Assembly (NCBI GenBank): GCA_009903795.1
Contig: WYER01000031.1
Location: forward strand, 40,080-104,079
Length of the DNA: 64,000 nucleotides
Origin: Nitrososphaerota archaeon
GTDB taxonomy: Archaea > Thermoproteota > Nitrososphaeria > Conexivisphaerales > UBA164
Direction of reading: 5' to 3'
The translations under genes were made by a program, and so were the position numbers. Below, one piece after another: positions 10,049 to 53,873 of the stretch (its first letter is position 1; each line of letters opens with the position of its first letter). The notes under the pieces were generated by a model. The model saw only the letters and a program-made list of their open reading frames with translations. It had not been told where the DNA came from and did no database searches.

Positions 10049-12784
10049 GTGAGAAAAGCGGTTTCTAGCACTCTCGCGGGTTTGATTGTTATAGGTATTG
10101 CCTTAGCTTCGATTTTTACGATCTACGCTCTTTACCTAAACGGCTTGCTTTTTGTTTCGCGAACAAACCAGCAAACGCTTTTTCTCGAATATAAGGCTCA
10201 AGAACGCCTCGCGCTTGTCGTTTCGGGTTCTAATTTAACTGTAATTAACGAGTGGGCGCATCCTTCGAAGATTGTTGATTTGCTTGAAATAGACCCGTCG
10301 AACAATTTGCATACTGTTCCCGTGAGCGTTGAAATTTTACCTAGACAAAATTACACGTTTGTTAATCTTTTGCAATCAGGATGGAAGTATGCTGTTCTCA
10401 CGTTTTACGGGAACGAGTTCTGGGCGCCTTACGGAATGATAAATCCTGCGAGTGAAATGTATACGCTTACGATGTCCGTTTATCCTTCAGGCGCGGGTCA
10501 AACAACTCCTGCGGTAGGCACTTACGTTTTGCCTTATGGGACGGTCGTGCATATTAGCGAAACGCCTGTCGGGAATAATTTGTTCTTATACTGGGTCGGT
10601 TCGGGTTATCAGAGTTATTCGGGGACTTCGCAAAATGCAACGATCTACATTTGGGGCAATATTACTGAAACGGCTTACTATGGCTATAAGATCACGTTTA
10701 ATGCAACAGGCTTGGGTTCTGATGCTGAAGGAACGGTATTGGTCGTGAACGGAAACTCTTATTCTTATTCGCAATTGCCCGTTACAGTAGACGTTCCAGG
10801 AGGTCAATCCGTGAGTTATTCTTTCTATTCGCCTGTTTATTCAACAATAAACGGTAAAAGGTACGTTTGGGTTTCGACAACTGGCTTAGATAATAAGCAA
10901 TCAGACACATTCACGCCTACGCAGTCAGGAAGCATTATAGGGAATTACGAAACTCAATATGAACTTATTATGAGCGTGTATCCTTCGGGCGCGGGTTCTA
11001 CTACTCCGAGCGGTTCTTCGTGGTATAATGCTGGGTCAAACGTTAAGATTTCGGCAACCGCGAATTCGGGTTATCAGTTTGCTTCGTGGAGCGGTTCAGG
11101 GTCTAGCTCTTATTCAGGAACGAGCAATCCTGTGACAATTACAATGAATTCGCCTGTGAATGAAACTGCAATCTTTAATATTGAGGTAATTATTCAAAAC
11201 ACGTTCGGAGGATCAGCTTCGGCATCGTATAACGGGCAGACATATCAATCTAATACTTCATTTTACGTGGCTCCTAATTCGCAAGTTACATTCACTGCAT
11301 CTCCGAATCAAGGCTACTTTTTTGACAAATGGGTTGGAACGCAATCAAGCACGAACAATCCTTTGAATTTAACAATTACTCAACCCACGAATGAAACGGC
11401 AGAATTCGGTTTCTATATTACTTTCAGTACCACAGGTTTGGGTTCTAATGCAGAAGGAACAGTTCTTTCGGTTGACGGACAAGGCTATACTTACTCGCAA
11501 TTACCTGTAACTATTGCCGTGAATTACGGACAATCTGTTAGTTATTCATTTTATTCGCCTGTTTATGCTTCAACAAATGGAGTAAGGTACGTGTGGGTTT
11601 CAACTTCAGGTTTGGATAATAAACAAACGGATAATTTTATACCGCATCAATCTGGGGACGTTATAGGAAATTATGCGTCACAATATGAACTTATCATGAG
11701 TGTGTATCCATCAGGCGCAGGAACAACGAACCCAAGCGGAACAACATGGTATAACGCAGGAACGAATGTGCAAATTTCAGCAACGCCTAACGCGGGTTAT
11801 ATGTTTGCGTCATGGAGTGGGGTCGGAACAATTTCATACTCAGGAACGAATAATCCTGCTACTGTAACAATGAATAGTCCTATTAACGAAACGGCTAACT
11901 TTGGCATTCAGGTAACTATTCAAAATACGTTCGGAGGGATTGCAACAGCATCTTATAACGGGCAGACGTATTATTCAAACACATCGTTCTTTGTTACTTA
12001 CGGTTCTCAAGTAACCTTTACAGCGTCCGCGGATCAAGGCTATTTCTTTGATATGTGGACAGGGACAGTTCAAAGTTCAAGCGCGACTTTGACTGTTATA
12101 ATTACTTCGCCTACGAGCGAAACTGCAGAATTCGGGTATTACATTACGTTCGGGGTTTCGGGCATGAATTCAAGCGCTCAAGGGACAGTTCTCACGCTCG
12201 ACGGAAACACTTACACGTATTCACAATTACCCGTGACAATCGCAGTGAATTATGGGCAATCAGTAAGCTATTCGTTCTCTTCGCCTGTCTCAACCTCGCT
12301 TTCGGACTTGCAATTCGTTTGGGTTTCAACTTCGGGCTTAGACAATAAGCAGTCAGACACTTTCACGCCTCATCAAGCAGGAAGTGTTATTGGAAACTAT
12401 GAAAGCGAATACTTTTATTACTTCAATCAGACGGGCATTCCTTCGAACGGTCCCGATTGGACTTTGAACGTGAACGGGCAAACTTACACTCTTACCCCGA
12501 CGCAGACTTTGAAGATTGTTTCAACGTCTTCTTCGCTTTCATGGACTGCATACAATACGAGCACGAACGGGGTTGTATATTATCCGTCGCCTAGCTCAGG
12601 AACCGCGCATCCTGGAACTAACACGATACACTATAATTCCGAAGTTACAGCAACAGGCATTTCAAACGAGTTTGTCTTAGTTTTGAATCCAAAGTTTTGG
12701 TTCTTTTTATTGAAAGTTCAAGTAGAGTATGTAATGCTTATTGTCTCACTGCTTGATGCCGTTCCTGAGCTCGGGTTAGCGTAA
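10049..12784 (+). CDS. large surface protein with a class III pilin-like leader and B-repeat-like tandem modules
   Basis: A GTG start at 10049 gives MRKAVSSTLAGLIVIGIALASIF. It is followed by repeated YELIMSVYPSGAG..GY.FASWSG..SYSGT.NP.T.TMNSP.NETA modules. The ORF track start (TTG 10013) probably over-extends. Confidence 0.7.
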   Translation: MRKAVSSTLAGLIVIGIALASIFTIYALYLNGLLFVSRTNQQTLFLEYKAQERLALVVSGSNLTVINEWAHPSKIVDLLEIDPSNNLHTVPVSVEILPRQNYTFVNLLQSGWKYAVLTFYGNEFWAPYGMINPASEMYTLTMSVYPSGAGQTTPAVGTYVLPYGTVVHISETPVGNNLFLYWVGSGYQSYSGTSQNATIYIWGNITETAYYGYKITFNATGLGSDAEGTVLVVNGNSYSYSQLPVTVDVPGGQSVSYSFYSPVYSTINGKRYVWVSTTGLDNKQSDTFTPTQSGSIIGNYETQYELIMSVYPSGAGSTTPSGSSWYNAGSNVKISATANSGYQFASWSGSGSSSYSGTSNPVTITMNSPVNETAIFNIEVIIQNTFGGSASASYNGQTYQSNTSFYVAPNSQVTFTASPNQGYFFDKWVGTQSSTNNPLNLTITQPTNETAEFGFYITFSTTGLGSNAEGTVLSVDGQGYTYSQLPVTIAVNYGQSVSYSFYSPVYASTNGVRYVWVSTSGLDNKQTDNFIPHQSGDVIGNYASQYELIMSVYPSGAGTTNPSGTTWYNAGTNVQISATPNAGYMFASWSGVGTISYSGTNNPATVTMNSPINETANFGIQVTIQNTFGGIATASYNGQTYYSNTSFFVTYGSQVTFTASADQGYFFDMWTGTVQSSSATLTVIITSPTSETAEFGYYITFGVSGMNSSAQGTVLTLDGNTYTYSQLPVTIAVNYGQSVSYSFSSPVSTSLSDLQFVWVSTSGLDNKQSDTFTPHQAGSVIGNYESEYFYYFNQTGIPSNGPDWTLNVNGQTYTLTPTQTLKIVSTSSSLSWTAYNTSTNGVVYYPSPSSGTAHPGTNTIHYNSEVTATGISNEFVLVLNPKFWFFLLKVQVEYVMLIVSLLDAVPELGLA
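10685..12410 (+). repeat. in-frame tandem repeat, period 726-729 bp, about 2.4 copies
   Basis: Unit starts at 10685 (YKITFNATGLGSDAEG), 11414 (YITFSTTGLGSNAEG) and 12140 (YITFGVSGMNSSAQG). Long near-identical peptide stretches between units. Confidence 0.8.
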
Positions 12785-15700
12785 TACTTGTTGGAATAGT
12801 ATTTGTTCACGGGTACAGTTATCGGACTTTGAACGCTCCAGCTTACTGTTCCCGATAAGCCTGTGAACGTAATGCTTTGCCCTGCTTGAGCCGTTTGTGA
12901 TTGTCCGTTTACTGTTACTGTCCACGTTACTGGTTGTCCTGTAACTGGGTTTGTGGAAGGCAGACCTGATTCAGTGAAGGTTAATGAATACGTATTAGGT
13001 GGAGCTTGAACGGTTATTGTTATTGTTTGTGAATTAGCCGTGTTTCCTGTTTTCGCGTCTTGGATTTCAATATACGTGCTATACGTTCCTGCTTGCGAAA
13101 AAGTGTATTGAATGGTCGCGCTAGCGCTCGGTCCTACTGTATTTCCTACGGGATTACCGTCAACGTATAGTGTGAAATAATAGCTTCCTGAACCGCCAGA
13201 ACCTGAAGCCGAGTAGGTAACCGTAAGAGGTTGAGTGCCTGAAGTCGGGTTTGCAGAAGCCGTAACACTCAAACCTTTATAGAACGTTATTGTCTGAGAA
13301 CCCGTGTTTGAGAACGAGCCTGTCGAAGGTGTTCCCGAATAGCCCGAAGGATTAATCACGCCCCATGTGTATGTTTGTCCTGTCGCGAAAGTTTCGGTAA
13401 GGCTCGTGCCTGTTGTATAGTATGATTGCCCGTTTACTGTTACGCCCCATTTCGTTCCGCTAGGTAATCCGCTTTCATACCACGTGTACTGGAAGCTCGT
13501 TTGAGTAAACGTTATTGTCTGAGAACCAGGACCTGAGAAAGATCCTGAAGCAGGCGAACCTGAATAGTCTGTCGGATTAATCACGCTCCACGAATAAGTC
13601 TGTCCCGCGCTGAACGTTTCTGTCAAGCTCGAACTTGTAGTGTAATAGTTATTACCGTTTACCGAAACTCCCCACTGAGTCCCGCTCGGAAGCCCGCTTT
13701 CTGTCCACGTGTAGTTAAACGTCGAGCTTGAAGGAACGTAATTAATACTCACGGTCGCGTTTGTTGTCACTGAACCTGAAGAAGGTACAGCAACGTAAAC
13801 ATATTTAACGACGCGATTGTAAAACGTGACGCTCGTAGGTGAAATTTGCCAATTGTAAGTTCCTGGAGGCAAGTAGAACGTTACTGTCGGTTGAGTAAGA
13901 GTGTTTCCTGATTGAGATTGCCCGTTGCTTAACGTAATAGTAAAGCCGATAACAGAAAGAGCGTTTGTGCTTACTGTAAACTTCAAGTAGGTTGTGTATT
14001 TATAGTTAGCAGTAACAGAACCCGTGCCTCCTGTATCAACAATATCTATCGGGTTGTTGTTTGCAGAATACCCTCGTGCAGGCTGAACAAATCCCGTGAA
14101 GCTCCACGAAGTAAATGCATAGCCTGAATTCGGGTTGTCAGTCAGTTGAAGCTTCGTTCCCCACGTTACATACACGGTCTGATTTTGCCCCGCGCTTACT
14201 GTTCCCGAAGAACTACCGTAAACATACCCTGAAACTAAAGACCACGAAACAGACCCACCTTGCCCAGCGTTAATTGTTACGGCATAATAAGGCACGTAAT
14301 TGACGGTAATAATGTTTGTATTATTCTCAGTATTGCCCGTGATTTCAAAGGTTACCGAATTGCTCGTCTTTGAAAGCACGTCTATTGCGCTCGTGGAGAT
14401 TGAAGAAGGAACGTAATATATGCTCCCTGCTTGTATAACAGGGAAAGTAATGTTATAAATGTAATACGAGTTTGTCGTGTAATCAAAGCCTGGTTCTTTG
14501 ATCGAAACAGGAGAGCCGTAAACAATGTTCGTGCTTTGCTTTTGCCCGTTCTGATAAATCACAAAGCTCCACGATTGCCCGCTCGGTAACCCGCGTTCAC
14601 TAATGTAATCGATAAAGTTAAACCACGTGAGATAGACAGTAATATTTCCAGGCGCGTTCACTTGCGTAAGAACATTATAAACGTATGTGTTGCCCGATGT
14701 AGTCTTTGTGATTGAATTGTAATTGATTGAAATGCCCGACGGTGCAGTGATTGAAGAACTGTAAGGTTGAGCAATGTAATAATCTTCTTCAGGTGTAAGT
14801 TCGAATGTTTGATAACCCCCAGCTGGAACCCATACTGTCTGTGGGTTTGAAAAACCGTAATTAGGGATGAAAAACACGTTCACTTCGTAATATGTTGAAT
14901 ATGAAATTTGTTGGGTTACGTTTTGAGTACCGACTGAAATAGTACCGCTCGCTTGTGAAGTCTGATACTTTGTTCCACCTGACGTGTAAGACGGCATTAC
15001 AGAGTAGGATAAGGTCGTGTCTTGAGGAATTCCTGTGAATACTATCGGGTTAGGAGTAGTCGCCTGTTCTGTCACGCTTCCTAACTTTGCCCACCACGTA
15101 ATTCCATTTGGAAGCCCTGTTTCTGTAAAAGTCACAGTATACGTATGTCCTAAATAAGTAATGCCTTGCTCAAACGTCCCATTGTTGCCCGAAGATAACG
15201 TGAAGTAGCCTGAAGATGGGTTTGCCGATGCATTAGCAGTCCCGTAAAGCGAGGTATATGTTAGCACAGGAGTAATGTTCCATGAATAAGAACCAACAGG
15301 TATTCCTTTCCACTTGAACGTAGCAACAGCATAAGAAAATAGAATATTGGCAGACGTAAGAGTTTGAGTTTGCGTTTGCTTGGTACCATTCGGGAAAGTT
15401 AAAGTTAAAGAAACAGTCTCACCATCAGCCCATATAGGAGCCGAAACGTCAAACGTCACAGAAGTTTGCACGACAATCGGATAAAGCTTAAACCATGGAC
15501 CGTTATATGCTTGCGCAAAACTATTTGATGGCAAATTAAAAGTCCACGGGTTTGAAGACGAAGTATATTCCACATTCGAACGCACATTACTTATTTCTAG
15601 CATATACCATTCAGTAAACACGTAACCCGAGAGAGGGGTATCATAGAAAGACGGAGAACTTCCTGCGGGGAAGTAGACAGATGTTGAAGAAGGAGGCGAT

Positions 15701-20292: not shown

Positions 20293-20324
20293 ACAGAAAG
20301 GTAATTAAAAAAGAAATTGCTTAG

Positions 20325-20396
20325 AATTTCGCGAATTTTTCCCTTATTTTTTTTTGGTTTTTATTTTATTCTTTCCTTAGCTTAGAGTATTGTTTT
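20325..20396 (+). terminator. shared terminator-like cassette T2
   Basis: gaatttcgcgaatttttcccttatttttttttggtttttattttattctttccttagcttagag. Confidence 0.5.
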
Positions 20397-21671: not shown

Positions 21672-21732
21672 CTCCAAGCTAAGTGAAAATAAAAAAATCA
21701 AAAAAATAATAAAGAAAAAATCGCGAAATTCA
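21672..21732 (-). terminator. shared terminator-like cassette T5
   Basis: On the gene strand: gaatttcgcgattttttctttattatttttttgatttttttattttcacttagcttggag. Confidence 0.45.
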
Positions 21733-22551
21733 AGAAGTTTGTGCTTCTTGTTCTCTTATGAATTCTTCGAAGATTTTAGTTGCTTTTAGTGACCAGTCAA
21801 ACCTCGTGCTTGTCTTGAGTTTCCTGTGTGATATTTGATAGGTTATGTCATTGTACGCTTCCCACAAATTCTTCGGGACAAAGTTTTGAACGACCTTCTT
21901 TTTTCCGAGAGCTACTACGTCCTTAATGATAGGCGCAGGGAATGTTCTTGCTAAGATCTCGGCTAATTGCTGGTTGACTTTGTATTGTTTGAATTGTCTG
22001 AAGAGCTCAAGCTTTTGTTCAAACGTGTCCTGTAAAAGTTTTGCTTTTTCTAAGAATGATTCTTTCATCATTTCAACAATGTAGGACTTTTCGACGGTTG
22101 CAATTTTACTGTCTTCTGCACGCATAAGCCCGTTTGAGCAAACTAAACGAAGCAGTGAAACGTCTATCCTAAAATTACCGAGAACATTGTGGCGGACTCC
22201 AATTCCCCACGCGACTAAGTCCCCGACTTCTACCTCTCCTTTTATTTGCGATGAGATAAGGGTTGCCATGTATTTTATTCCGTCGTTGCTTTCTTCCTTT
22301 ATCTCCATGTTTAATTCTTTCGCGGCCTCGTGCGTTATATTTTTTGCAACTTCAGTCGGGACGGGGATAAAAGACCAGCTTTTCACGACGTTTTGCACTC
22401 CTTTTGGGGTAGGCAAAGAAACGATTTGATACCGCTTCGGCTTTCCTTCAAAACTCCCGTAATATTGCATTATCCCGTATTTTTCCCAATTTCTTTCAAC
22501 CTCTGTCACTTCAAAATGCATACTGTTTGAAATTATTTCTGCCTGTGTCAT
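21730..22551 (-). CDS. DUF932-like protein (phage/plasmid-associated family)
   Basis: 273 aa. LRLVCSNGLM resembles the R.VC.NG signature as I remember it for DUF932. Confidence 0.5.
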   Translation of the reverse strand: MTQAEIISNSMHFEVTEVERNWEKYGIMQYYGSFEGKPKRYQIVSLPTPKGVQNVVKSWSFIPVPTEVAKNITHEAAKELNMEIKEESNDGIKYMATLISSQIKGEVEVGDLVAWGIGVRHNVLGNFRIDVSLLRLVCSNGLMRAEDSKIATVEKSYIVEMMKESFLEKAKLLQDTFEQKLELFRQFKQYKVNQQLAEILARTFPAPIIKDVVALGKKKVVQNFVPKNLWEAYNDITYQISHRKLKTSTRFDWSLKATKIFEEFIREQEAQTS

Positions 22552-22646: not shown

Positions 22647-23594
22647 GTGTTAGAAAGCAGGGTTCGTGAAAGCATTAAAATTTTGAAGGACGCATCTCGT
22701 TCCTACTCTTTACCGTGGGCTTTAGGCTTTTCAGGTGGAAAGGATTCAACAACGGCTCTTTCTCTCACTCTGAAAGCAAAAGAAGAAGGCGCGGAAATTT
22801 CAAAGCTTTACGTTATTTATGCGGACACGATGCTCGAACACCCTTTTCTTAGAAAAAAGTCTTTAGAAGCGCTCGAAAGCTTGAAAGCGTTTGAATGGCT
22901 CAAGGCTGTTGTAGTGAAAGCGAGGGAAGGAGAGGACTTCATTTCAATGATGGTTGACAAAGGATATCCTGCGCCTTCGATCTTCAATAGGTGGTGCATG
23001 GCGCGTTTGAAAATTTATCCCGTTCGCAGGTTTCTTAGACAGATAGGAAAGCGCGTAATGGTTTTGGGCGTTCGTTCTGACGAAAGCGCGAGAAGGAAAG
23101 CAACAATAGGAACGGAGCCTTTGATAGTGAAAAGGAACGAAATAGACGTGCGACCTTTGATTAAGTGGACAAAATTCGACGTTTTTGAATACTTGCTAAA
23201 CACGAAAAGGTGGGATGGAGAAAGTTTCGATTACGTGTTCGAGCTTTACGTTGAAGAATGCGGTTTCAACCCTGACGTTCCTTGCGGGACTTCTGACGTG
23301 CGCTTCGGTTGTTGGGTTTGCACTTTGGTTAATCAGGAAAAGATGCCTGTAAGCGAAACATTGAAGAAGGTGCGAGTAGGTCTTAAGGAAATTTCTTCAA
23401 AGCGCGAGAATAGAATTATAGACGAGAACGGAAACCCGAGGCGCTTGAATTTAGAAGGACGTAAGAAGGTTGCGGAGCTTTTTTTAGAGGCTTTAGAAAA
23501 GGAGCCTGAAGCTTTCGGTTACGACGTCGGGGCTTTGAAGAACAAGCTTGAGACGTTTTTAAAAGACGCGCGGGAAAAGACCCTTTCTCTCTGA
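22647..23594 (+). CDS. PAPS reductase-family PP-loop protein, DndC/IbrA-like
   Basis: LGFSGGKDSTTAL (PP-loop). C-terminal CGTSDVRFGCWVCT cysteine motif. GTG start 20 nt after cttttaaag. Confidence 0.6.
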   Translation: MLESRVRESIKILKDASRSYSLPWALGFSGGKDSTTALSLTLKAKEEGAEISKLYVIYADTMLEHPFLRKKSLEALESLKAFEWLKAVVVKAREGEDFISMMVDKGYPAPSIFNRWCMARLKIYPVRRFLRQIGKRVMVLGVRSDESARRKATIGTEPLIVKRNEIDVRPLIKWTKFDVFEYLLNTKRWDGESFDYVFELYVEECGFNPDVPCGTSDVRFGCWVCTLVNQEKMPVSETLKKVRVGLKEISSKRENRIIDENGNPRRLNLEGRKKVAELFLEALEKEPEAFGYDVGALKNKLETFLKDAREKTLSL

Positions 23595-23656
23595 GCGTTT
23601 TTGAGCAAAAGAGTTAGATTCCTGACGCAAAAAAAGTGCTAGGAAAAATGTGTTTC
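23587..23656 (+). repeat. inverted repeat, left arm (IR-L)
   Basis: ctctctgagcgtttttgagcaaaagagttagattcctgacgcaaaaaaagtgctaggaaaaatgtgtttc. About 59 of 70 positions match the reverse complement of 26217-26282 by hand alignment. Confidence 0.75.
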
Positions 23657-23687
23657 TCTTTTTAAAAGTGCGCAAGCCTGTTGTATA

Positions 23688-23822
23688 GTTTCGGTGCGGA
23701 ACAATGTTTCAGTGCGGAACTACGTTCTTTTCAAACCCCCTTTCCCCGAGCGGTTCTCCTCCTTTCGCGAAAGGTTAGAATGTTTCAAAGTTCCACACCG
23801 AAACTTTGTTTCGCTCTGAAAC
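23688..23822. promoter_or_regulatory. symmetric array of four ORB-like 15-mers around a 14 bp palindrome
   Basis: gtttcggtgcggaac (23688), gtttcagtgcggaac (23706), gttccacaccgaaac (23790, inverted), gtttcgctctgaaac (23808). 18 bp spacing within each pair. cctttcgcgaaagg at 23761-23774. Confidence 0.45.
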
Positions 23823-23848
23823 TGAAAAGCGTTCTTTGAAGCATTCTA

Positions 23849-23885
23849 ACAAAACGAACGAAAGCCTCTTCAAAGGCGCGGCGAA
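23849..23885 (+). repeat. solo IS left-end-like sequence
   Basis: acaaaacgaacgaaagcctc is identical to the IS left-end leader (20 nt). It is followed by a shortened hairpin-like ttcaaaggcgcgg. Confidence 0.5.
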
Positions 23886-23935
23886 GATCGGCAAAGCAAA
23901 CTTTCGGTTTTTATTTCTCTTTTGCACTCTCTTTC

Positions 23936-25786
23936 ATGGCTTCGCTTGATGTTGAAAGTTTAAAGGGACATATTTTTGTGGTAGGGGCGACGGGTTCGGG
24001 AAAGTCCACACTCTTAGTCTTTCTCATGAAATACATTCACGAGAACATGAAAGATGCTTCTGTTATTTTCATAGACCCACACGGCGACGCTTCTATTCAA
24101 ATCGCTTCGCTCGTCGAAAACCCAACGCTCTACGATCCTATCTACTCACCTTTCGCTCTTAACCCGATGGATCTAGGCTCTTACAAAGACGAAAGCGAAA
24201 GAACGTACTTAGTTCAAAGGCGCGTTTCGGAGCTCGTTAATATGTTGAACGAGCTTTTCGGGGTAGAACAGAGCAGAGCACCTAGGCTTTTGTGGATCTT
24301 CAGGGGCTTGCTTTACTACTTATACTCGATTACGGACACTCCTACCTTTTTAGACCTTTACACGCTCCTTTCAGACCTTTTGAAAGACCCGAACGAAATC
24401 CGGACTTTAATGAAATCCTCGGGCTTGGACGATGAAATAATTAAAAACACGATCGAAGCGATTTCATCTTTGCCTCCTGAGGCTTTCACGGCTGTGCTTA
24501 ACAGGATCTCAGGCTTTGTAATGCCCGCAGGCTCTCTAACTTCGAAAACTTTCAACACGAGGAAAACGAGCGTGGAGTGGAATAAAATGCTGGAGCCTAC
24601 ACAAGTAACGATCTTTCGCATCCCTCGTTACGCGCTCCCCGATGACTTTCGTAAGATCTTAACTTCGACAATCGTGATGGACTTGTTTTTTGCAATCGAG
24701 AAGAGGAAGAACGACGGGAAACCTATCACGCCTGTATACTTAGTAATCGATGAATTTCAGAACGTTGCTGACTTAGACATTTTAGACGTTATTTTTTCAG
24801 AAGCAAGGAAATTCGGTTTGTTTCTAGTAATAGCGCATCAGCACCTCCTTCAAGTTAACGATACGCTTTTGCATTCTATTCTAAGCAATTCAAGGCTCAT
24901 TATCGCTTTTCGTTTAGGACCCGAAGACGCGGAAAAGCTCGCGAAGGCTATGGGTAATTTGAATTTGAAAGAAACGCTCACGAACCTTCCGAACTACACG
25001 GCTTTAGTTAAATACATCGACAAGCACTACATAATGAAAACAAAGGACGTTCCTCAAGGTAACCCTGAAATCTTGAAAAAGCTATCGAAAAAAGTAGAAC
25101 TCAACGAAGACAGGATCCCCGTGTATTACGTTACAAAATCAAAATACCCTGCGCCTCCTTTTACGCCTTTGAGGTGGACTGTACTTTCGTTTATTTATAC
25201 TAACGGTCCTCAGGTTTCTTACGAGCGCGTGAAGAACGAAATGTTCCGCAAGTACGCGTGGGACGAAAGCCTAACTCTCTCTGCTTTGAATTATTTACAA
25301 GACAAAGGGCTGATAAAAGCCGTAAGAACAGCGGACGGGGTATTTTACGAAGTCACGCCTCACGGTCTTACGTATTTCAAGCCTCGCGACGTGTTTTCGA
25401 AAAGAGCGGGAGGGGCATTGCATAACGCGATGGTCGGCGAAATTTACAGAAGGTCTATCGAGAATGGCTACTGGGTTGAAGTTGACGACGGGAATAGCTT
25501 TGAAGAAAAGCCTGACCTTCTGGTTTTCATGCCTATGGAAAACACGAGTGTAGAACGCGGAGGTCTCGTGAAGAACATTCGCAGTTTGGAAGAGTGGGGA
25601 ATACCTGTCGCTTATGAGATAGAAACGCTTTCGAACTCTTCAGAACAAATAAAGAAGAACCTATACAAAAACTTGAGCAAAGGTTATCGCGTTGTATTTG
25701 TCGTGGAGAACGAAGAGAACGCAAAGAGAATTCGCGAAATTTTAGGCGAGGGAAACTATGAAGTGATAGTGCTTTCGACGTCGTGA
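23936..25786 (+). CDS. T4SS coupling-protein/HerA-like ATPase fused to a wHTH and a PD-(D/E)xK-like C-terminal domain
   Basis: Walker A VVGATGSGKST, IFIDPHGD, Walker B VYLVIDEFQ, ARKFGLFLVIAHQ. wHTH-like LNYLQDKGLIKAVRTADGVFYEVTPHG. C-terminus has EKPDLLVF...AYEIET. Confidence 0.6.
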   Translation: MASLDVESLKGHIFVVGATGSGKSTLLVFLMKYIHENMKDASVIFIDPHGDASIQIASLVENPTLYDPIYSPFALNPMDLGSYKDESERTYLVQRRVSELVNMLNELFGVEQSRAPRLLWIFRGLLYYLYSITDTPTFLDLYTLLSDLLKDPNEIRTLMKSSGLDDEIIKNTIEAISSLPPEAFTAVLNRISGFVMPAGSLTSKTFNTRKTSVEWNKMLEPTQVTIFRIPRYALPDDFRKILTSTIVMDLFFAIEKRKNDGKPITPVYLVIDEFQNVADLDILDVIFSEARKFGLFLVIAHQHLLQVNDTLLHSILSNSRLIIAFRLGPEDAEKLAKAMGNLNLKETLTNLPNYTALVKYIDKHYIMKTKDVPQGNPEILKKLSKKVELNEDRIPVYYVTKSKYPAPPFTPLRWTVLSFIYTNGPQVSYERVKNEMFRKYAWDESLTLSALNYLQDKGLIKAVRTADGVFYEVTPHGLTYFKPRDVFSKRAGGALHNAMVGEIYRRSIENGYWVEVDDGNSFEEKPDLLVFMPMENTSVERGGLVKNIRSLEEWGIPVAYEIETLSNSSEQIKKNLYKNLSKGYRVVFVVENEENAKRIREILGEGNYEVIVLSTS

Positions 25787-25798
25787 GAGGCGAGGCGC

Positions 25799-26218
25799 TT
25801 GAAATTAGACAAGTGGGACGCGTTCATCGGAGTTCTCATCGCTTTCGTCGAATCAGGAGCAAAAGTTCTCACGGGTTTTGCGCTTTCGGTCGGGTTTCGT
25901 GAAGCGAACCCTTTCATGCAAAGCCCTAAAAACGCGCTTTCAGGTCTCGCTCTTATAACTCTTATTATTTTCGCGCTTTTCTTTCTGCTCGACCCTTATC
26001 GTAAATTAGGACTTTCGATTCTGTTAGGAGTTGTGAATGCGGACTTTGCGCACGATCTTTTGCTTTTGCTTCACTTCGGCGAATACACGACGTTCGGGTT
26101 TTCAGTAGTTTCAGCGATTCTTCCCATCTTTCTCACGGCGTTCGTTCTGCTCTACGAAAGAGACCCACGGAAAGAGGAACTGAAAAAAAGAAGGAACTGG
26201 AAAATGTTCAACGTTTGA
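25799..26218 (+). CDS. small 4-TM membrane protein (DUF5658-like?)
   Basis: 139 aa, TTG start 13 nt after the ATPase stop. Contains a REANPF motif. Confidence 0.4.
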   Translation: MKLDKWDAFIGVLIAFVESGAKVLTGFALSVGFREANPFMQSPKNALSGLALITLIIFALFFLLDPYRKLGLSILLGVVNADFAHDLLLLLHFGEYTTFGFSVVSAILPIFLTAFVLLYERDPRKEELKKRRNWKMFNV

Positions 26219-26282
26219 AACCCTTTTTCCTAGCACTTTTTTACCTCAGGGATCTATCTTTTCCTCAAAAATGCTTAGAGAG
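26217..26282 (-). repeat. inverted repeat, right arm (IR-R)
   Basis: The reverse complement reads ctctctaagcatttttgaggaaaagatagatccctgaggtaaaaaagtgctaggaaaaagggtttc. Confidence 0.75.
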
Positions 26283-26344
26283 AAGAACCCCTCTTTCCAT
26301 GTCGGTTCTCTCTCCTTTCACCGAAAAAAGCATGCTCTAATTTA

Positions 26345-30560: not shown

Positions 30561-30710
30561 AATTATAGGTGTACGAAGCGATGCTGACCTCCCTCCTACC
30601 TTAAATGTCGAGGTTTGTTGTTCACCTTATCACGTTTTGAGTTTGTAAATTACTTCGCCCTTATGGATGTGTCCTGTTATGAAAAAGGTGAAATTTAAAA
30701 AAGAACATTT

Positions 30711-31358
30711 TTAGGGGAAGTTTCCGTAGCCTGGAGTTCTTATTGCCGAAATTGTAGTGGGACCGTCTATCTGTTGAATTATTAAATATTTCCCGACTCC
30801 CCAATCGCTCCCGTTCACGTACCACCTCGCGCTCTTAGAAGCATAAACAATCCAAGGACCCGAGCCTGCTGGAACGTAATAAACGCCTCCAGGTTTCGAG
30901 AGTTCTACGCCTAACCCGATAGTGCTTACGGGAACCAATTGCGTCGATACGTTAGCCATGAAAAGACTCCCGTAGTTCGTAAGAACGCCTGAATCAGAAG
31001 TCCCCGTCGGAAAAGTAACATACTGCCCCGTCCCTAACGTAATGCCTACGTGCTGAAAACTCAAAGACCCGTTCTGCTCTATAACGACGTCTTCAATGAT
31101 TACAGGGATCCCGTAGTTGAAAACAATAATCCCGCTCTTGCCAGAAGGAGGCAAAGCTTCAACGTAACTCACTGAAATGTTTTGTTTATTAAACTGACTT
31201 TCGTATTCTAACGCTTCGTGATAAGCGAAAGAGTTTGCGAAATAAGAACCCGTCGCGAGCAGTATCGAAAACGCGGAGAGAAAGACAATTATTATGAAGA
31301 AGAGCGCTCCTACAACGTCCGCCACGCCCTTTTCTTTCTCGCGCTTAAGAAACAACAA
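30711..31358 (-). CDS. type IV pilin-like protein
   Basis: MLFLKREKEKG-VADVVGALFFIIIVFLSAFSILLA. Confidence 0.65.
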   Translation of the reverse strand: MLFLKREKEKGVADVVGALFFIIIVFLSAFSILLATGSYFANSFAYHEALEYESQFNKQNISVSYVEALPPSGKSGIIVFNYGIPVIIEDVVIEQNGSLSFQHVGITLGTGQYVTFPTGTSDSGVLTNYGSLFMANVSTQLVPVSTIGLGVELSKPGGVYYVPAGSGPWIVYASKSARWYVNGSDWGVGKYLIIQQIDGPTTISAIRTPGYGNFP

Positions 31359-33208: not shown

Positions 33209-33535
33209 TCAGGGTCTGTGTGCTAGTTTCTTTTCCAATTCTTTTAATTCTTTTATAGGCTCAAGCTCGTTCGTAACTTTTTCTTTTTCGTTATAATAAA
33301 CATGTTCTGCGTTTATCCATACACGATAATAGTCTACGCGAACCCTCCATTGCTTTGTCCCCTCTTTTTTGTATATCAACCCTGCTTTTTCAAGCGACAC
33401 AAGTAAGTATTGAACGTGCCGTTTAGACAAATTAGTATATCGCGAAATGTAGTTTAAAGTGTCATGCCCTTCTAAAATGGCTAACACAATTTTTATTGCG
33501 TCTATTTCGGTTTTAGAGAGGTTTTTCGCGTGCAT
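33209..33535 (-). CDS. winged-helix DNA-binding protein
   Basis: 108 aa. LNYISRYTNLSKRHVQYLLVSLEKAGLIYKKEG. Confidence 0.5.
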   Translation of the reverse strand: MHAKNLSKTEIDAIKIVLAILEGHDTLNYISRYTNLSKRHVQYLLVSLEKAGLIYKKEGTKQWRVRVDYYRVWINAEHVYYNEKEKVTNELEPIKELKELEKKLAHRP

Positions 33536-33541
33536 TTTTTC

Positions 33542-34669
33542 TCATACGAACTTTATTCTTACCTTTTTTCCTTCTAGTTGTAGTTCTTCTCCATCTTCTA
33601 CGATAATTGGTTGAATGCCACTCACTTTTTTCACAAACATGTATTTTTTTCCATTTATGATTTCGTATTCCACGTCATGTTGCATGAGTATAATTGTTTC
33701 TTCTTCGCTAATTTCAGAAGGAACTTCTTCTTTTGTTTCAAAAGACATTTCTTCTCTTTCAAGCTTTTCAACTTCTTCTGGCTTTTCTTCTGTTTTTTCT
33801 ATTTCAAGTGGTTGTTCTTCTGCGCCTTCAGATAAGAGAGTTTCTTCTGTTTTTTCAAGCTTTTCTTCAGGTTCTTCTTTCTTTTCTTCAAACTCTTCTT
33901 TGATTATTTCGACATGATAAGGTGGCGCTTGATACATGGCAATAATTTTTTCTACGTCCTCCTTGCTAAGTCCCGCGATCTCAAGGTCTCGAGGCTTGAG
34001 TATAGACACGTTTTTTATCGCAAACTCTTTAAAGCTTTCTGCTGTAACGCGTTTCACATTAATGCGGTAGACTAAGAAGAAAATTGCGAAGAATTTCCGT
34101 TCTTCTAAAGATTGCAGGTCTCTGAAAAGAAATATAAGTTCCTCAAGCGAAAGATGGTTATTAAATCCTTGTGCTTTTGCCCTTTGTTCTTCTTCAGCAA
34201 GTTCTTTGAGATCATTTTCAACACTTTCACTAAGACTCCTAATAACAGATCTGATAAGATGAACGTCACGCGCAGGCAATAATTTATCAGCAAACGGAAA
34301 CTTCAGTATTATGTGAAATTTATCAAGCGCTGTTAAGTCTGAACGCTTTACGTTTTCCTCGCGAATCAGTTCATAAAAGTTTTTAGGCTTTTTCTCGAAA
34401 ACAAAAGCTTTGAATGTTCTCGGCTTTCCTTCTTTTTCATAAAGCTCTTTCACTGCACGAAGCCTTCTTATGCCTACAAAAACTTTGTATTTATTCCCGT
34501 CCTTGTAAGCGTAACCGGGCATTAACTGTCCTACTTCGCGAATGCTTTCAACCAAGTCAGAAACGTCGTAATAAACTCTGATTTGCGCTTCTTCGTCTTC
34601 TTCTACGCTTTCAATCGGGAGCTCTTTATATTCAAAAGGCTCTAAGTTTTCGTTCATGCCATCTTCCAC
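33542..34669 (-). CDS. ParB/Srx-like nuclease-domain protein with an E/K-rich C-terminal half
   Basis: VESIREVGQLMPGYAY...VFVGIRRLRAVKEL (GxRRxRA-type box). Low-complexity EEKKEEPEEKLEKTEE region. Confidence 0.55.
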   Translation of the reverse strand: MEDGMNENLEPFEYKELPIESVEEDEEAQIRVYYDVSDLVESIREVGQLMPGYAYKDGNKYKVFVGIRRLRAVKELYEKEGKPRTFKAFVFEKKPKNFYELIREENVKRSDLTALDKFHIILKFPFADKLLPARDVHLIRSVIRSLSESVENDLKELAEEEQRAKAQGFNNHLSLEELIFLFRDLQSLEERKFFAIFFLVYRINVKRVTAESFKEFAIKNVSILKPRDLEIAGLSKEDVEKIIAMYQAPPYHVEIIKEEFEEKKEEPEEKLEKTEETLLSEGAEEQPLEIEKTEEKPEEVEKLEREEMSFETKEEVPSEISEEETIILMQHDVEYEIINGKKYMFVKKVSGIQPIIVEDGEELQLEGKKVRIKFV

Positions 34670-35301
34670 CTCCTTAATACTTTTTTCATAACCAACCGAG
34701 CGATCGTAAGGCTTTTCTTTCCCATAAAAGAAGGATCTTGAAGCGCTTTCGCATATTCTTGATAATACTCTTTTTTCAACGCGTCCTGTATATCTTTTGA
34801 GCTTTCGAGAAGGTCATCTGGCAAAACTTTTTCAAAGGGAACGATCTTTGAGCGCCTAGCTTTTCTTAAACCGTTTTGATAACATAAGGAATAAAGCTTG
34901 TGAGCCGTCATTTCAATTCCTTTTTGTCTTAAATATTGCAAGACCTTCTCGACAGGATATCCGTGAGCGTAAAGAGAAACTGCTAACTTCAAAGGAAGCG
35001 CCCCGTAAACTTTCTTCGCGTCCCTCACAATTACTTCCTTTTCTACCTCAGAAATGTCCGTGAAGAAAGAATTAAGCTCCCTCCAAAGCTCTCCGTCGTT
35101 CCCGCTCGATAAAATGTTAGGATTGTAATAAGGTCTTCTCTTGTGTATAAGCTCGTACTCTCGGTAATTTAGCACGGGAGGTGATGGGGAATGATCTTCG
35201 TACGACATGCTTAATAATGCAAAAGGGCTTTTTAAACCCCCGTCAAGGTAATAATCGCATGCCAAAGAAATATTATAAATATTATATTGCATATAAATCA
35301 T
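34654..35301 (-). CDS. hypothetical protein
   Basis: 215 aa ORF, translationally coupled to the ParB-like gene (16 nt overlap). Confidence 0.4.
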   Translation of the reverse strand: MIYMQYNIYNISLACDYYLDGGLKSPFALLSMSYEDHSPSPPVLNYREYELIHKRRPYYNPNILSSGNDGELWRELNSFFTDISEVEKEVIVRDAKKVYGALPLKLAVSLYAHGYPVEKVLQYLRQKGIEMTAHKLYSLCYQNGLRKARRSKIVPFEKVLPDDLLESSKDIQDALKKEYYQEYAKALQDPSFMGKKSLTIARLVMKKVLRRWKMA

Positions 35302-36125: not shown

Positions 36126-36172
36126 TAAATTAATATTTTATAAGGGAAGAATAAAAACCTAGCACTCAAAAT

Positions 36173-36247
36173 GGGGCCGGTGGGATTTGAACCCACGACC
36201 GCCAGCGCCCCAGGCTGGCATCCTAGACCAGGCTAGACGACGGCCCC
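36173..36247 (-). tRNA. tRNA-Pro, anticodon GGG
   Basis: Hand fold of the reverse complement: GGGGCCG/CGGCCCC acceptor stem, CCAGC-CTGGGGC-GCTGG anticodon arm, GTGGG-TTCAAAT-CCCAC T arm. No encoded CCA. Confidence 0.9.
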
Positions 36248-43099: not shown

Positions 43100-43555
43100 T
43101 TATTTAGCCTCCATCTTCTGATAATAAGAAAGATCAAGAAGCCCATGCCCGCTTAGGTTAAAAGCTATAACGAGCTTTTCCCTTTTTTCTTTGGCTTCTT
43201 GAGCTACCTTTATAGCTGCCATTATTGCATGTGCGCTTTCAGGGGCTGGTACTATACCCTGTGTTCTTGCAAACAGCTTTGCAGCTTCATAAACCTCAGT
43301 TTCACTGAATTCCATCCATTCAACAGTCTTATCCCGAACCAAAAGGCTTAATGTAGGAGCAAGTCCATGGTATCTAAGGCCTCCAGAATATATAGGAGGA
43401 GGTACGTAGTCTTTTCCTAGTGTTATCATCTTAAGCATTGGTAGTAGACCTGCAGAATCCGGGAAGTCGTATTCATAAACGCCTTTGCTGAACTTTTTAA
43501 TTTCAGAAGAACTAACGGCAATGTACCTCGAACCTCTTTTAGATCCTATAAATGG
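43100..43555 (-). pseudogene. trpB: tryptophan synthase beta (TrpB2-type), C-terminal fragment
   Basis: The frame is open from the IS right end: [15 protein letters not shown]...GGLRYHG...APESAHAI...NLSGHG. Confidence 0.75.
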
Positions 43556-44953
43556 CTGGCATCCTCCCCGCCTTAAAAGGCGATGGTTCCTTCAAGGCGG
43601 ATCACAGGTTCGTGGTTTACCGCCTTCATCTTCATCGCTTCATAGCTAGTGGTTACCCACCCCGCTCCGTTCGTCCAGCGATAGACCAAGGGCTGTTCCT
43701 TCAGCCACTTACCCCTATCCTCAACGGACTCGGGGATATGTAGAATGTTAATTGCCCCGTTCAAATCAGCGTTTATTACCTTCCCTGTGCGAGGACACTT
43801 AAACAAGCCTCTTTTAATCCTTCCGTTTTCGTGAATTTCCCCACACAGAGAACACGTCTTAGATGTATTTTCTTCATCCACAAGCTTAACCTTTATCCCG
43901 TATTCCTCTGCTACTTCCTTGATTCGCTTTATTATTGCAGAATAGCTCCAAAAGTTTGTATTTCTTTCGTTTCCTTTATCCTGAGCTATTCCCTTTGGGT
44001 AGCCGACGTATATTTCTCCTACTCCTTTATCGTAAAGAGATTCTACGATTTCCCTTGCTAGTCCTTCTCTTGCATTCTTGAGCAAAAGAGAACGCTTTTT
44101 GTATAACATTTCAAGCTTCCTGCTAGTTTTCAAGCCATGCCTTGAAAGCCTCTTTTCTTCTATTAAGATGCGCTTTGTTATCTTCTTAAATTCTGAAAGC
44201 ACTGAACCACCTTTAAAGATCATCCACGAGCCGTCTTCAACAGCTACGGTTGCAAGGTTTACAACGCCTAGGTCGATGCCCGCTTTCATTTTGCCTTTTG
44301 GTTTATTATTTACTTTTACAACCATAGGAATCCTTGCGTACCACTTCTTCCTTGCATTATCGAAGAATATTTCAAGGGTTCCCTGTTTGCCAACCCACTT
44401 GAGCTTTCCAATGAACTTTAGTCTCAGGTTGAAATCCATGAGGAATATTTCGTTTCCTTCAATCTTGTACCTGTCGTGTCTAATTAGCAAAAACAGGTTA
44501 TCTTTCTTTTTGTGAGGAGGCTTAGGCTTCATCCACTTAGGCAATTCACCTTCTTTCTTCTTTTTGCTTAGCTCGAAAAAAGATTTCCATGCTCCCATGT
44601 TCTTTCGCGTTACTTGCTGAACGTTTGCCCCGTGTAATATAGCTTTGAACTTTTCATAAACGACTTTTTCTGTTTTATTAAAATCTACAGGCTCGTGATT
44701 TTTGTACTGCTCAAGCCTCAACTTATTAACTTCGTTCCAGCAATTAACGAATGCCTTTCCGAGAACCGTTAGTTTAGCTTTTGTTTCTTTCCCAGCAATG
44801 ATGCGTACTGTGTTCGATCGGCGCATGCTTTCGTTATTTTATCCTAATTAAAGAATATAAATACTTTAGCCTTTTTTATAAGAAAACACGTTAGCAAGGA
44901 CGGAATAGTTCAGCATCCCCGCCTCTTCTAAAGGCGAGGCTTTCGTTCGTTTT
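43556..44953 (-). mobile_element. IS200/IS605-family element, tnpB-only, copy 2, inside trpB
   Basis: Same ends as copy 1. The left-end hairpin loop is tagaa instead of ttcta. The 5' flank on the IS strand is TTAC. Confidence 0.85.
43573..44826 (-). CDS. tnpB: TnpB
   Basis: 417 aa, collinear with 678-1940. Many substitutions, so it is not a recent identical copy. Confidence 0.9.
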
Positions 44954-45639
44954 GTAACAAAACTACTTCCATAACGCTTCCAACTAGGTACTTGTAACCT
45001 TTTTTTTATGGCGTATTCTATAGCCTCGCTCATAGCTATCCCTAAAGATCCAGGGTTAGAAGGATTCTTTTCTAGCTCTTTTCTGCCGTACTCAGTAACT
45101 TCAGAAGGGCTAGCATACACTTCAGCGCCATAAAGGTTCATCATAGTTCTCCTGCCAGGTTTCTGTTCATAGCTAACCCTAACCATAAAAACTGTGGACT
45201 TGATTTTCATTAAAGAGGCTGCAAGCGCGACAGCTGTACCCCACTGCCCTGCACCGGTTTCTGTTACAACTCCTTCAACCCCTTCTTCTTTGGCAAAATA
45301 CGCCTGAGGTATAGCTGTGTTTATCTTATGAGAACCAGAATGAGTTGCGCCTTCATATTTAAAGTAAATCTTTGCAGGCGTATCAAGGACTTCTTCAAAG
45401 TTTTTAGCCCTCATAAGGGGCGTGGGTCTACCCGCAAGCGAATACAGTTCTATTACATCATCAGGGATCTTAACATACCTTTCAGCGGTAAACTGCTGTC
45501 TGAGAACTTCTTTAGGAATTATGCTGTTTAAAAGTTCAATTCTTGAGAAGTTAGAATCTTCAGGATCACGAGGAGGAGGAAGAGGCCTTGGAAGGTCTGG
45601 TACTATATTATACCAATAACGCGGGATAAATTCTATCAT
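44954..45639 (-). pseudogene. trpB: tryptophan synthase beta (TrpB2-type), N-terminal fragment with an extra frameshift
   Basis: [10 protein letters not shown] (PLP Lys), ETGAGQWG. The A8 run (plus-strand T8 at 45000-45007) shifts the frame. The alternative frame reads [17 protein letters not shown] up to the IS. Confidence 0.75.
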
Positions 45640-53531: not shown

Positions 53532-53578
53532 CTCAAATATATTTATGAATGCTGTTTATAGGCTATTCTAAAGTTTAC

Positions 53579-53873
53579 AAAACGAACGAAAGCCTCGCCT
53601 CTTCTAGAGGCGGGGTAAAATTTAAATTACTAAAACGTTGTAAAGCGTATTAAAGCGTGTCCCGTAAGGGAATACTTCAAGAAGGCTCTACATATTCTGG
53701 AGTCCAATGAGGATAGGGTAAGTGGCTGAAGGAACAGCCGGTGGTCTACCGCTGGATAAACGGAGCGGGGTAGGTAACCATTAGCTATGAAGTCATGAGA
53801 ATGATCGCGGTAAACCACAAACCTATGATCCGCCTTGAATGAACTATCGCCTTATAAGGCGGGAAGATGTCAG
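53579..53873 (+). mobile_element. tnpB-less mini-element (left-end hairpin fused to the last ~215 bp of the IS)
   Basis: 5' flank TTAC (53575-53578). Left end identical to copy 1 through the hairpin. From about 53690 it is collinear with the tnpB 3' end and right end, ending gggaagatgtcag. Confidence 0.8.
53655..53873 (+). ncRNA. predicted omega/reRNA scaffold carried by the mini-element
   Basis: Homologous to the 3' region of copies 1 and 2. The 5' boundary is a guess. Confidence 0.4.

Follow-up and report, generated by a model that had tools for sequence, protein, structure and literature searches.

A 33-bp tandem pair of short dyads upstream of a TraG/VirD4-like ATPase gene was identified as a real, lineage-specific and conserved cis-element in a 64,000-nucleotide stretch of DNA from a Nitrososphaerota archaeon (NCBI GenBank assembly GCA_009903795.1, contig WYER01000031.1, positions 40,080 to 104,079 of the forward strand), which was analysed at its full length and is referred to here as the window. 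The window carries an integrative-conjugative element (ICE) of Nitrososphaeria, and its gene set agrees with that described for the ICEs of Thaumarchaeota (PMC6563490). The pair is most likely an operator or upstream activating site that would bind two dimers of a regulator in the transfer-gene control region of this element, a reading to which we assign a rough probability of 0.47. In the window itself, two such pairs face each other in the 341-bp gap that separates two plus-strand genes, forming an array of four boxes of the type GTTYC-N5-GRAAC. The features of the region are listed below, with positions in the window.

22647-23594, plus strand: upstream neighbour, a DndC-like gene of the PAPS-reductase fold (Pfam PAPS_reduct, 3.9e-15; PADLOC DndC, 8.6e-39).
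23659-23667, minus strand: TTTTTAAAA, relic TATA box of a deleted divergent gene named c3, aligned with the c3 promoter in related loci L008, L035, L045 and others.
23688-23702, plus strand: box L1, GTTTCGGTGCGGAAC, equal to the consensus of the conserved pair from 21 related loci.
23706-23720, plus strand: box L2, GTTTCAGTGCGGAAC, 18 bp past L1.
23735-23775, plus strand: module M3, aaccccctttccccgagcggttctcctcctttcgcgaaagg, conserved after the boxes in many loci.
23774-23850, no strand assigned: 17-nt inverted repeat around the right box pair, 94% complementary.
23790-23804, minus strand: box R, GTTTCGGTGTGGAAC on the reverse strand, second box of the inverted pair.
23808-23822, minus strand: box R', GTTTCAGAGCGAAAC on the reverse strand, first box of the inverted pair.
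23847-23890, plus strand: TAAC followed by the remnant of an IS200/IS605-family left end, with a perfect 23-nt terminal sequence, GAGGCTTTCGTTCGTTTTGTTAG.
23908-23916, plus strand: ATPase TATA box, TTTTTATTT, starting at -28 from the ATG and implying a leaderless mRNA.
23936-25786, plus strand: TraG/VirD4/HerA-like ATPase gene, 616 aa (Pfam TrwB_AAD_bind, DUF87 and TraG-D_C).

The four boxes start at 23688, 23706, 23790 and 23808, so that the coordinates given for four 15-mers in the initial annotation, together with the spacing of 18 bp (start to start) within each pair and the perfect palindrome CCTTTCGCGAAAGG at 23761-23774, were all reproduced. Relative to GTTTCGGTGCGGAAC, L1 has no mismatch, L2 has one, and R and R', read on the reverse strand, have one and three, respectively; the weight-matrix score of R' (24.3) lies inside the range of the boxes of the whole family. 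Five matches to GTTYC-N5-GRAAC were found in the 64 kb, where 0.27 were expected, and four of them are contained in 135 bp; at least five matches were obtained in none of 100 shuffles. The two pairs form inverted arms of 35 nt (23687-23721 and 23789-23823) that are 83% complementary and separated by 67 nt, and a second inverted repeat with arms at 23774-23790 and 23834-23850 holds the right pair in its loop. No support for coding potential was obtained for the small open reading frames (ORFs) at 23681-23839 and 23775-23927, and in the related locus L022 an ORF crosses the boxes but has no canonical start.

Scans based on alignments of the ATPase yielded 49 related loci, 46 from metagenomes and three from genomes. 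Of these, 38 belong to a lineage that is 85-97% identical to the window and derives mostly from hot-spring metagenomes, and in 36 of the 38 the region upstream of the ATPase is covered. At least one box can be observed in 26 of these 36 loci and a pair in 25, L007 having a single box. The 11 more distant loci contain no boxes and no analogous repeats, nor were analogous repeats found upstream of ATPases of approximately 55% identity. The conserved unit is the tandem pair, each box reading GTTTC-RGNRY-GGAAC with a linker that is usually AAA, for which the search pattern GTTYCNNNNNGGAAC-N3-GTTYCNNNNNGGAAC can be used. Including those of the window, the start-to-start spacing is 18 bp in all 28 pair units, which represent 19 distinct sequences; among the latter the arms are nearly invariant, whereas the centre varies as R-G-N-R-Y. 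In 12 aligned loci of the c3 type the arms are invariant, whereas the upstream flank differs at many columns. Moreover, the pair is kept in at least four unrelated upstream and at least five unrelated downstream flank contexts, which argues for selection on the unit itself. In the tandem (left-type) arrangement it is found in 21 loci, always upstream of the ATPase and in the same orientation, at distances of 63 to about 3400 bp. The absence of conservation in homologous cassettes had been proposed as grounds for abandoning the initial annotation; in this respect the tandem pair proved to be conserved, whereas the symmetric array did not.

A weight matrix derived from the boxes was run on both strands over 320 kb, comprising the window and the 49 related loci, and nothing else reached the score of a real box except one extra single box in L034. 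As to a possible regulon of boxes at other promoters of the window, 10 weak matches to a single box were found against an expectation of 5.4, and those that could be placed fall within ORFs. Viral contigs, plasmids and phages yielded no match. A dispersed repeat of the MITE or PATE type was considered and rejected, as no copy lies outside the intergenic position in the 64 kb or in the 320 kb of related DNA. Moreover, each half of the array, left or right, can occur in the absence of the other.

The analysis of promoters in the element's genes showed a sharply positioned TATA motif: 29 motif hits start at -31 to -26 from the start codon, whereas every other bin contains at most seven. Leaderless mRNAs are therefore implied. 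The stereotyped promoter of the element's genes, observed over 2-36 kb, is (G)GTTTTTAAA. By blastn and direct reading of the sequences, the intergenic region upstream of the ATPase was resolved into a mosaic of four short modules. M1 comprises the start of the divergent gene c3 and its TATA box, M2 (about 70 nt) contains the box pair, M3 (about 45 nt) contains the palindrome at 23761-23774, and M4 is the ATPase promoter, a segment that all close loci share, starting at about 23891-23902.

The simplest layout can be observed in L029 and L045, where the order is c3 ATG, 20 nt, TATA, 21 nt, the 33-bp pair, 20 nt, TATA, 19 nt and ATPase ATG, the pair being centred between two divergent core promoters. 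The distance between the end of box 2 and the ATPase TATA box is also 20 nt in L002, L024 and L030, and that between the c3 TATA box and box 1 is 20-21 nt in all loci of the c3 type. In the window this spacing is kept at the relic c3 TATA box only, which lies 20 nt from L1. The c3 product has about 205 aa and is acidic and helical, with neither a Pfam domain nor a DNA-binding domain. In L018, L035 and L040, c3 is followed by a gene for a VirB4-like ATPase (AAA_10/P-loop_TraG/DUF87), and the boxes consequently lie between two conjugation-ATPase operons. Loci with a second variant of c3 retain M1, M3 and M4 and lack M2, the boxes being present in 10 of 10 loci with the first variant against 0 of 6 with the second. 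This association can be explained by physical linkage.

The operator reading is based on several of these observations. In each box, the centres of the two 5-bp inverted arms are separated by 10 bp, or one helical turn, a geometry usual for a dimeric helix-turn-helix or winged-helix protein; the arms are selectively conserved and the unit is kept among unrelated flanks; and the distance of 20-21 bp to two TATA boxes is fixed. The ATPase promoter is intact in all loci irrespective of whether zero, one or two boxes accompany it, which fits an accessory regulatory site better than an essential cis-acting site. Additionally, the same architecture is repeated with a different sequence at the promoter of c14, which encodes an archaeal ATPase (PF01637) that has a winged helix: in L030 (4825-4860), the c14 start codon is separated from a TATA box by two 17-nt palindromic boxes in tandem, ATTACGCCGCCGTAATA, which constitute a second, unrelated operator-like pair in this family of elements. 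As for the function, two dimers of a predicted sequence-specific DNA-binding protein would occupy the 33-bp pair, which in the simplest, ancestral arrangement stands midway between two divergent leaderless promoters, the leftward one serving c3 and the VirB4-like ATPase and the rightward one serving the TraG/VirD4-like ATPase. A regulator bound in this position could govern both transfer operons together, either by activation or by repression. The pairs of the window lie at -248 to -216 and at -146 to -114 from the ATPase ATG, far upstream of its TATA box, and may therefore exert little regulatory influence at present.

Several observations weigh against an operator. No cognate regulator was identified: c3 was rejected for this role because its acidic, helical product has no DNA-binding domain and the gene is missing from the window, and the single small winged-helix gene detected in the window (33209-33535, encoding 108 aa) could not be connected with the boxes. 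No boxes occur at other promoters in the 320 kb, hence no regulon signature can be observed. Moreover, cargo insertions in L001, L018, L022 and L034 have their start or end exactly at the edge of a box, which is unexpected for a plain operator. As candidate binders we can name the winged helix of the ATPase, the 108-aa winged-helix protein and the winged helix of c14. The initial annotation had offered an operator for a dimeric regulator as its fallback, and it is this part that the comparative data favour, albeit for the tandem pair, since the symmetric array itself is not conserved.

The four-box symmetry of the window is not a designed structure but a juxtaposition of two box modules brought about by deletion, inversion and recombination, and its compact form is unique to the window. 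Homologues of c3, of the VirB4-like gene and of a D5-like primase (compare L008) were not found in the window, and the junction of the c3 deletion lies at 23644-23648. The left pair is the c3-side module that remained after the loss of c3. Positions 23786-23868, which comprise the right pair and its flanks, correspond in reverse complement to another box context, one present in the forward orientation in L002, L024 and L030; the right pair is an inverted copy of that context and is accompanied by the remnant of an IS605-family end. An inverted right pair occurs in seven sequences, namely the window, L001, L005, L015, L021, L028 and L031; L005 has the inverted right module and no left pair. Inverted pairs that face each other were found in the window, in compact form, and in L001, 1.4 kb apart, only.

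A TAAC target, situated about 25 nt beyond the right edge of the right pair (23822), precedes the remnant, whose local alignment score is 53, compared with a maximum of 23 in 500 shuffles. Intact copies of this IS200/IS605-family element are located at 660-2062 and 43555-44955; they are 1.4 kb each, 89% identical, and both encode TnpB only (OrfB_IS605 and a Cas12f-like TNB domain). A miniature derivative of about 300 bp with both ends kept was found at 53575-53873. The left end of the element has a hairpin, CGCCTCT..AGAGGCG, and abuts a TTAC/TAAC target. It was also observed that the flank of the first copy at 2063-2090, gctctgatacaaagaacgtt, resembles aatgcttcaaagaacgctt beside the remnant at the right pair; this likeness reflects either homologous insertion sites or a flank carried along by the insertion sequence.

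The alternative that survives best, though we regard it as unlikely, is that the boxes are preferred junctions of recombination, site-specific or driven by microhomology, at which cargo enters, leaves or inverts and of which the inverted pairs in the window would be a footprint. Its basis is that unrelated sequence begins 0-3 nt from the box edges in several contexts. In L034, a one-gene insert of 1,030 bp lies between the pair and a single box in direct orientation, and in L001 the left pair and the inverted right pair enclose a HEPN cassette of three genes. Moreover, the stretch that separates the DndC-like gene from the ATPase is a hotspot of cargo, in which HEPN cassettes, a type IIG methylase and an archaeal ATPase were encountered. 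The variable segments are bounded exactly by boxes in L034 and L001 and partly in L015, L028 and L031, many breakpoints lying elsewhere. Breakpoints were thus also found beyond the boxes, at distances of 14, 19-22 and about 60 nt, as well as at M3, at a 72-nt inverted repeat and at 23891-23902, which does not favour the boxes as junctions. Nor was an integrase, invertase or resolvase found in genes close to the boxes, either in the window or in the loci, where IS605-family TnpB only was present. The HEPN cassettes have one orientation in four of four cases, and inversion could have come about in an ordinary way through the insertion-sequence remnant beside the right pair. Finally, arms of 5 bp are short for the core site of a recombinase.

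The contents of the hotspot are diverse. The three-gene HEPN cassette is present in L001, L015, L028 and L031, and in the last three M3 stands as a direct repeat on each side of it. An Eco57I/MmeI-type methylase of 1028 aa was found in L038, the PF01637 archaeal ATPase with its winged helix, which has a PADLOC candidate-system match, in L030 and L022, a VirB4-like ATPase in L018 and L040, and a homologue of the window gene at 17920-19167 in L034-L036 and L042. Downstream, L005 carries an OLD-family nuclease. An unannotated protein of 275-319 aa without a Pfam match is encoded at 2360-3187 of L034, in the box-bounded insert, and at 1909-2868 of L008; it has repeated segments, which by eye resemble DNA-binding motifs of the AbrB/SpoVT type.

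The 72-nt inverted repeat (23585-23656 and 26217-26284, 85% identical) brackets the boxes, the ATPase gene and a DUF5658 gene, and may be a bidirectional terminator or a substrate of recombination. Each of its copies is followed by a C-rich element resembling M3, an M3-like copy being located at about 26285-26330. Another inverted repeat of 74 nt (20314-20387 and 21672-21740, 80% identical) is located in a T-rich intergenic part of the element.

The ATPase itself has to be considered as a ligand of the boxes. Among its homologues are Nitrososphaeria proteins whose annotation is type IV secretion or conjugative DNA transfer, and the similarity reaches as far as TraG from conjugative plasmids of Sulfolobus, with 26% identity across 97% of the length. 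The C-terminal 212 residues were modelled with a pLDDT of 91.5. Residues of about 411-473 form a winged helix, the model of which matches STIV F93, MarR, BlaI and AspA. The protein ends in an alpha/beta domain, in which D517, D527, E561, E563 and K578 are invariant. From this pattern we infer that the last domain is PD-(D/E)xK-like. No co-variation of the winged helix with the presence or type of the boxes was observed, the winged helix being identical with and without boxes.

The boxes have also been considered as a site that the ATPase would recognise through its winged helix and at which the adjacent nuclease-like domain might process DNA, in the manner of an origin of transfer (oriT); we consider this rather improbable. 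The boxes stand upstream of the TraG/VirD4-like ATPase, with the VirB4-like operon on their other side in relatives; the tandem pair has a constant orientation upstream of the ATPase in the 21 loci; and the protein combines a confidently modelled winged helix with an alpha/beta domain that bears the invariant D, D, E-x-E and K. Additionally, three independent insertions of the IS605 family lie within about 100 bp of the boxes (in L006, in the window and L030, and in L001 and L015). Elements of this family target single-stranded DNA. Archaeal ICEs and conjugative plasmids have no recognisable relaxase and no known oriT (PMC6563490, PMC9905601), and TraG is required for transfer in Sulfolobus (PMC9899855). 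Against an oriT-like role stands the absence of boxes, within the 4-8 kb covered per locus, from 10 of the 36 close loci, whose contigs are partial. In its most explicit form, in which the ATPase would dock on the 33-bp pair via its winged helix and the fused nuclease-like domain would open the DNA, the pair being the first identified archaeal equivalent of an oriT, the proposal is doubtful to a still greater degree. If correct, it would account for transfer in the absence of a relaxase, and the clustering of cargo and of IS605-family elements at the boxes would reflect frequently single-stranded or broken DNA.

A third possibility, that the inverted repeat acts as a hairpin in RNA or single-stranded DNA, as a terminator, attenuator, small RNA or cruciform, is very improbable. 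The 176-nt region folds at -61.1 kcal/mol, with z = -6.6 for the plus strand and z = -4.2 for the minus strand. However, both arms would be needed, and they are close together in the window only, being 1.4 kb apart in L001 and reduced to one pair in most loci. What is conserved is the arms of the boxes and not compensatory changes between left and right, and no Rfam match was obtained even at E = 1. A structured RNA was thus rejected as a family-wide function, the loci with a single pair in effect refuting it.

The weakest reading, proposed in the initial annotation, is a replication origin with inverted boxes similar to origin recognition boxes (ORBs) around an unwinding region, and it was rejected as next to impossible on the grounds of core spacing, base composition, the absence of an initiator from the ORFs scanned and a layout that is not conserved. 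The boxes share with ORBs and mini-ORBs a short dyad that contains TTCC and GAA(A)C cores, as well as their occurrence in inverted copies, and in some relatives c14 adjoins them. However, in TTCC-GCACC-GAAAC (reverse strand) the cores are 5 nt apart, one base more than the 4 nt that separate TTCC from GAA in the published mini-ORB TTCCAGTGGAACT (PMC1904270). An A+T-rich unwinding region and an adjacent initiator (Orc1/Cdc6, WhiP or Rep) are features of origins (PMC4010727). The spacer between the pairs (67-69 nt) has a G+C content of 46%, against 42.5% for the intergenic region and 39.5% for the window, so that it is not A+T-rich, as had been conceded from the start. No Orc1/Cdc6, MCM, Rep, WhiP or primase was found among the ORFs between 16.6 and 35.8 kb and others scanned, a set that does not cover every ORF of the window; the earlier remark that no Orc1/Cdc6, MCM or Rep gene is nearby thus holds for the neighbouring ORFs scanned. 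The inverted array is missing from almost all homologous loci, boxes of any kind are missing from the 10 loci mentioned above, and c14 is variable cargo without a canonical start codon in L022, L023 and L037.

With regard to the remaining gene content, the DndC-like gene upstream of the boxes is solitary, no other dnd genes being seen nearby, and it adjoins a DUF932 gene (21730-22551). Other genes of the window encode a TadC/T2SSF-like protein, a pilin-like protein, the small winged-helix protein already mentioned and a protein with a weak ParB_N match; a tRNA-Pro gene at 36172-36247 is followed by trp genes. A TFIIB homologue of their own has been reported upstream of ParB in thaumarchaeal ICEs (PMC6563490), and the ORF upstream of the ParB_N-like gene in the window (34654-35301) matched neither Pfam nor the PDB. 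The segment 26837-30707, which carries genes for an MFS transporter and a quinolinate phosphoribosyltransferase (nadC), is missing in L001, L004 and L008, where 26836 is joined to about 30708-30712; host-type genes therefore lie inside the element in the window. A protein of 923 aa with InlB B-repeats (10706-12404) has internal tandem duplications of about 730 bp, and the adjacent gene, encoding 1279 aa, has an internal repeat of 225 bp at 13283-13713.

In the literature found, no cis-acting operator or oriT-like site is described for archaeal conjugative elements, and only putative replication origins with repeats have been reported, in Sulfolobus plasmids (PMC4390865). The conserved 33-bp site represents a short DNA probe with which the protein that controls or starts the transfer of the Nitrososphaeria elements could be fished out. 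If the boxes are merely a local operator, the result is an ordinary one that still helps to annotate these elements and to dismiss a false origin call; its importance would be high only if they are the site recognised by the TraG-like ATPase.

Two groups of known systems can be compared with the tandem pair. In the control and oriT regions of the bacterial plasmids RP4 and R388, accessory proteins with a role both in regulation and in the relaxosome bind to repeats that separate divergent transfer operons. The likeness consists in repeated dyads and in their position between divergent operons for a VirB4-like and a VirD4-like ATPase. The comparison differs in that the boxes are missing from part of the close relatives, and archaea have no known relaxase or nic site (PMC6563490, PMC9905601).

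The second group comprises archaeal operators and upstream activating sites with two palindromes near the BRE and TATA elements, such as the Ptr2/Lrp-type sites of Methanocaldococcus and the tandem operators of Sulfolobus viruses and plasmids. These have in common with the boxes described here short dyads, two per site, a distance of about 20 bp from the TATA box and a location in the intergenic region of leaderless genes. The present site differs from them in that GTTTC-N5-GGAAC matches no motif that can be named, in that it is shared by two divergent transfer promoters, and in that the unit persists while its flanks are exchanged.
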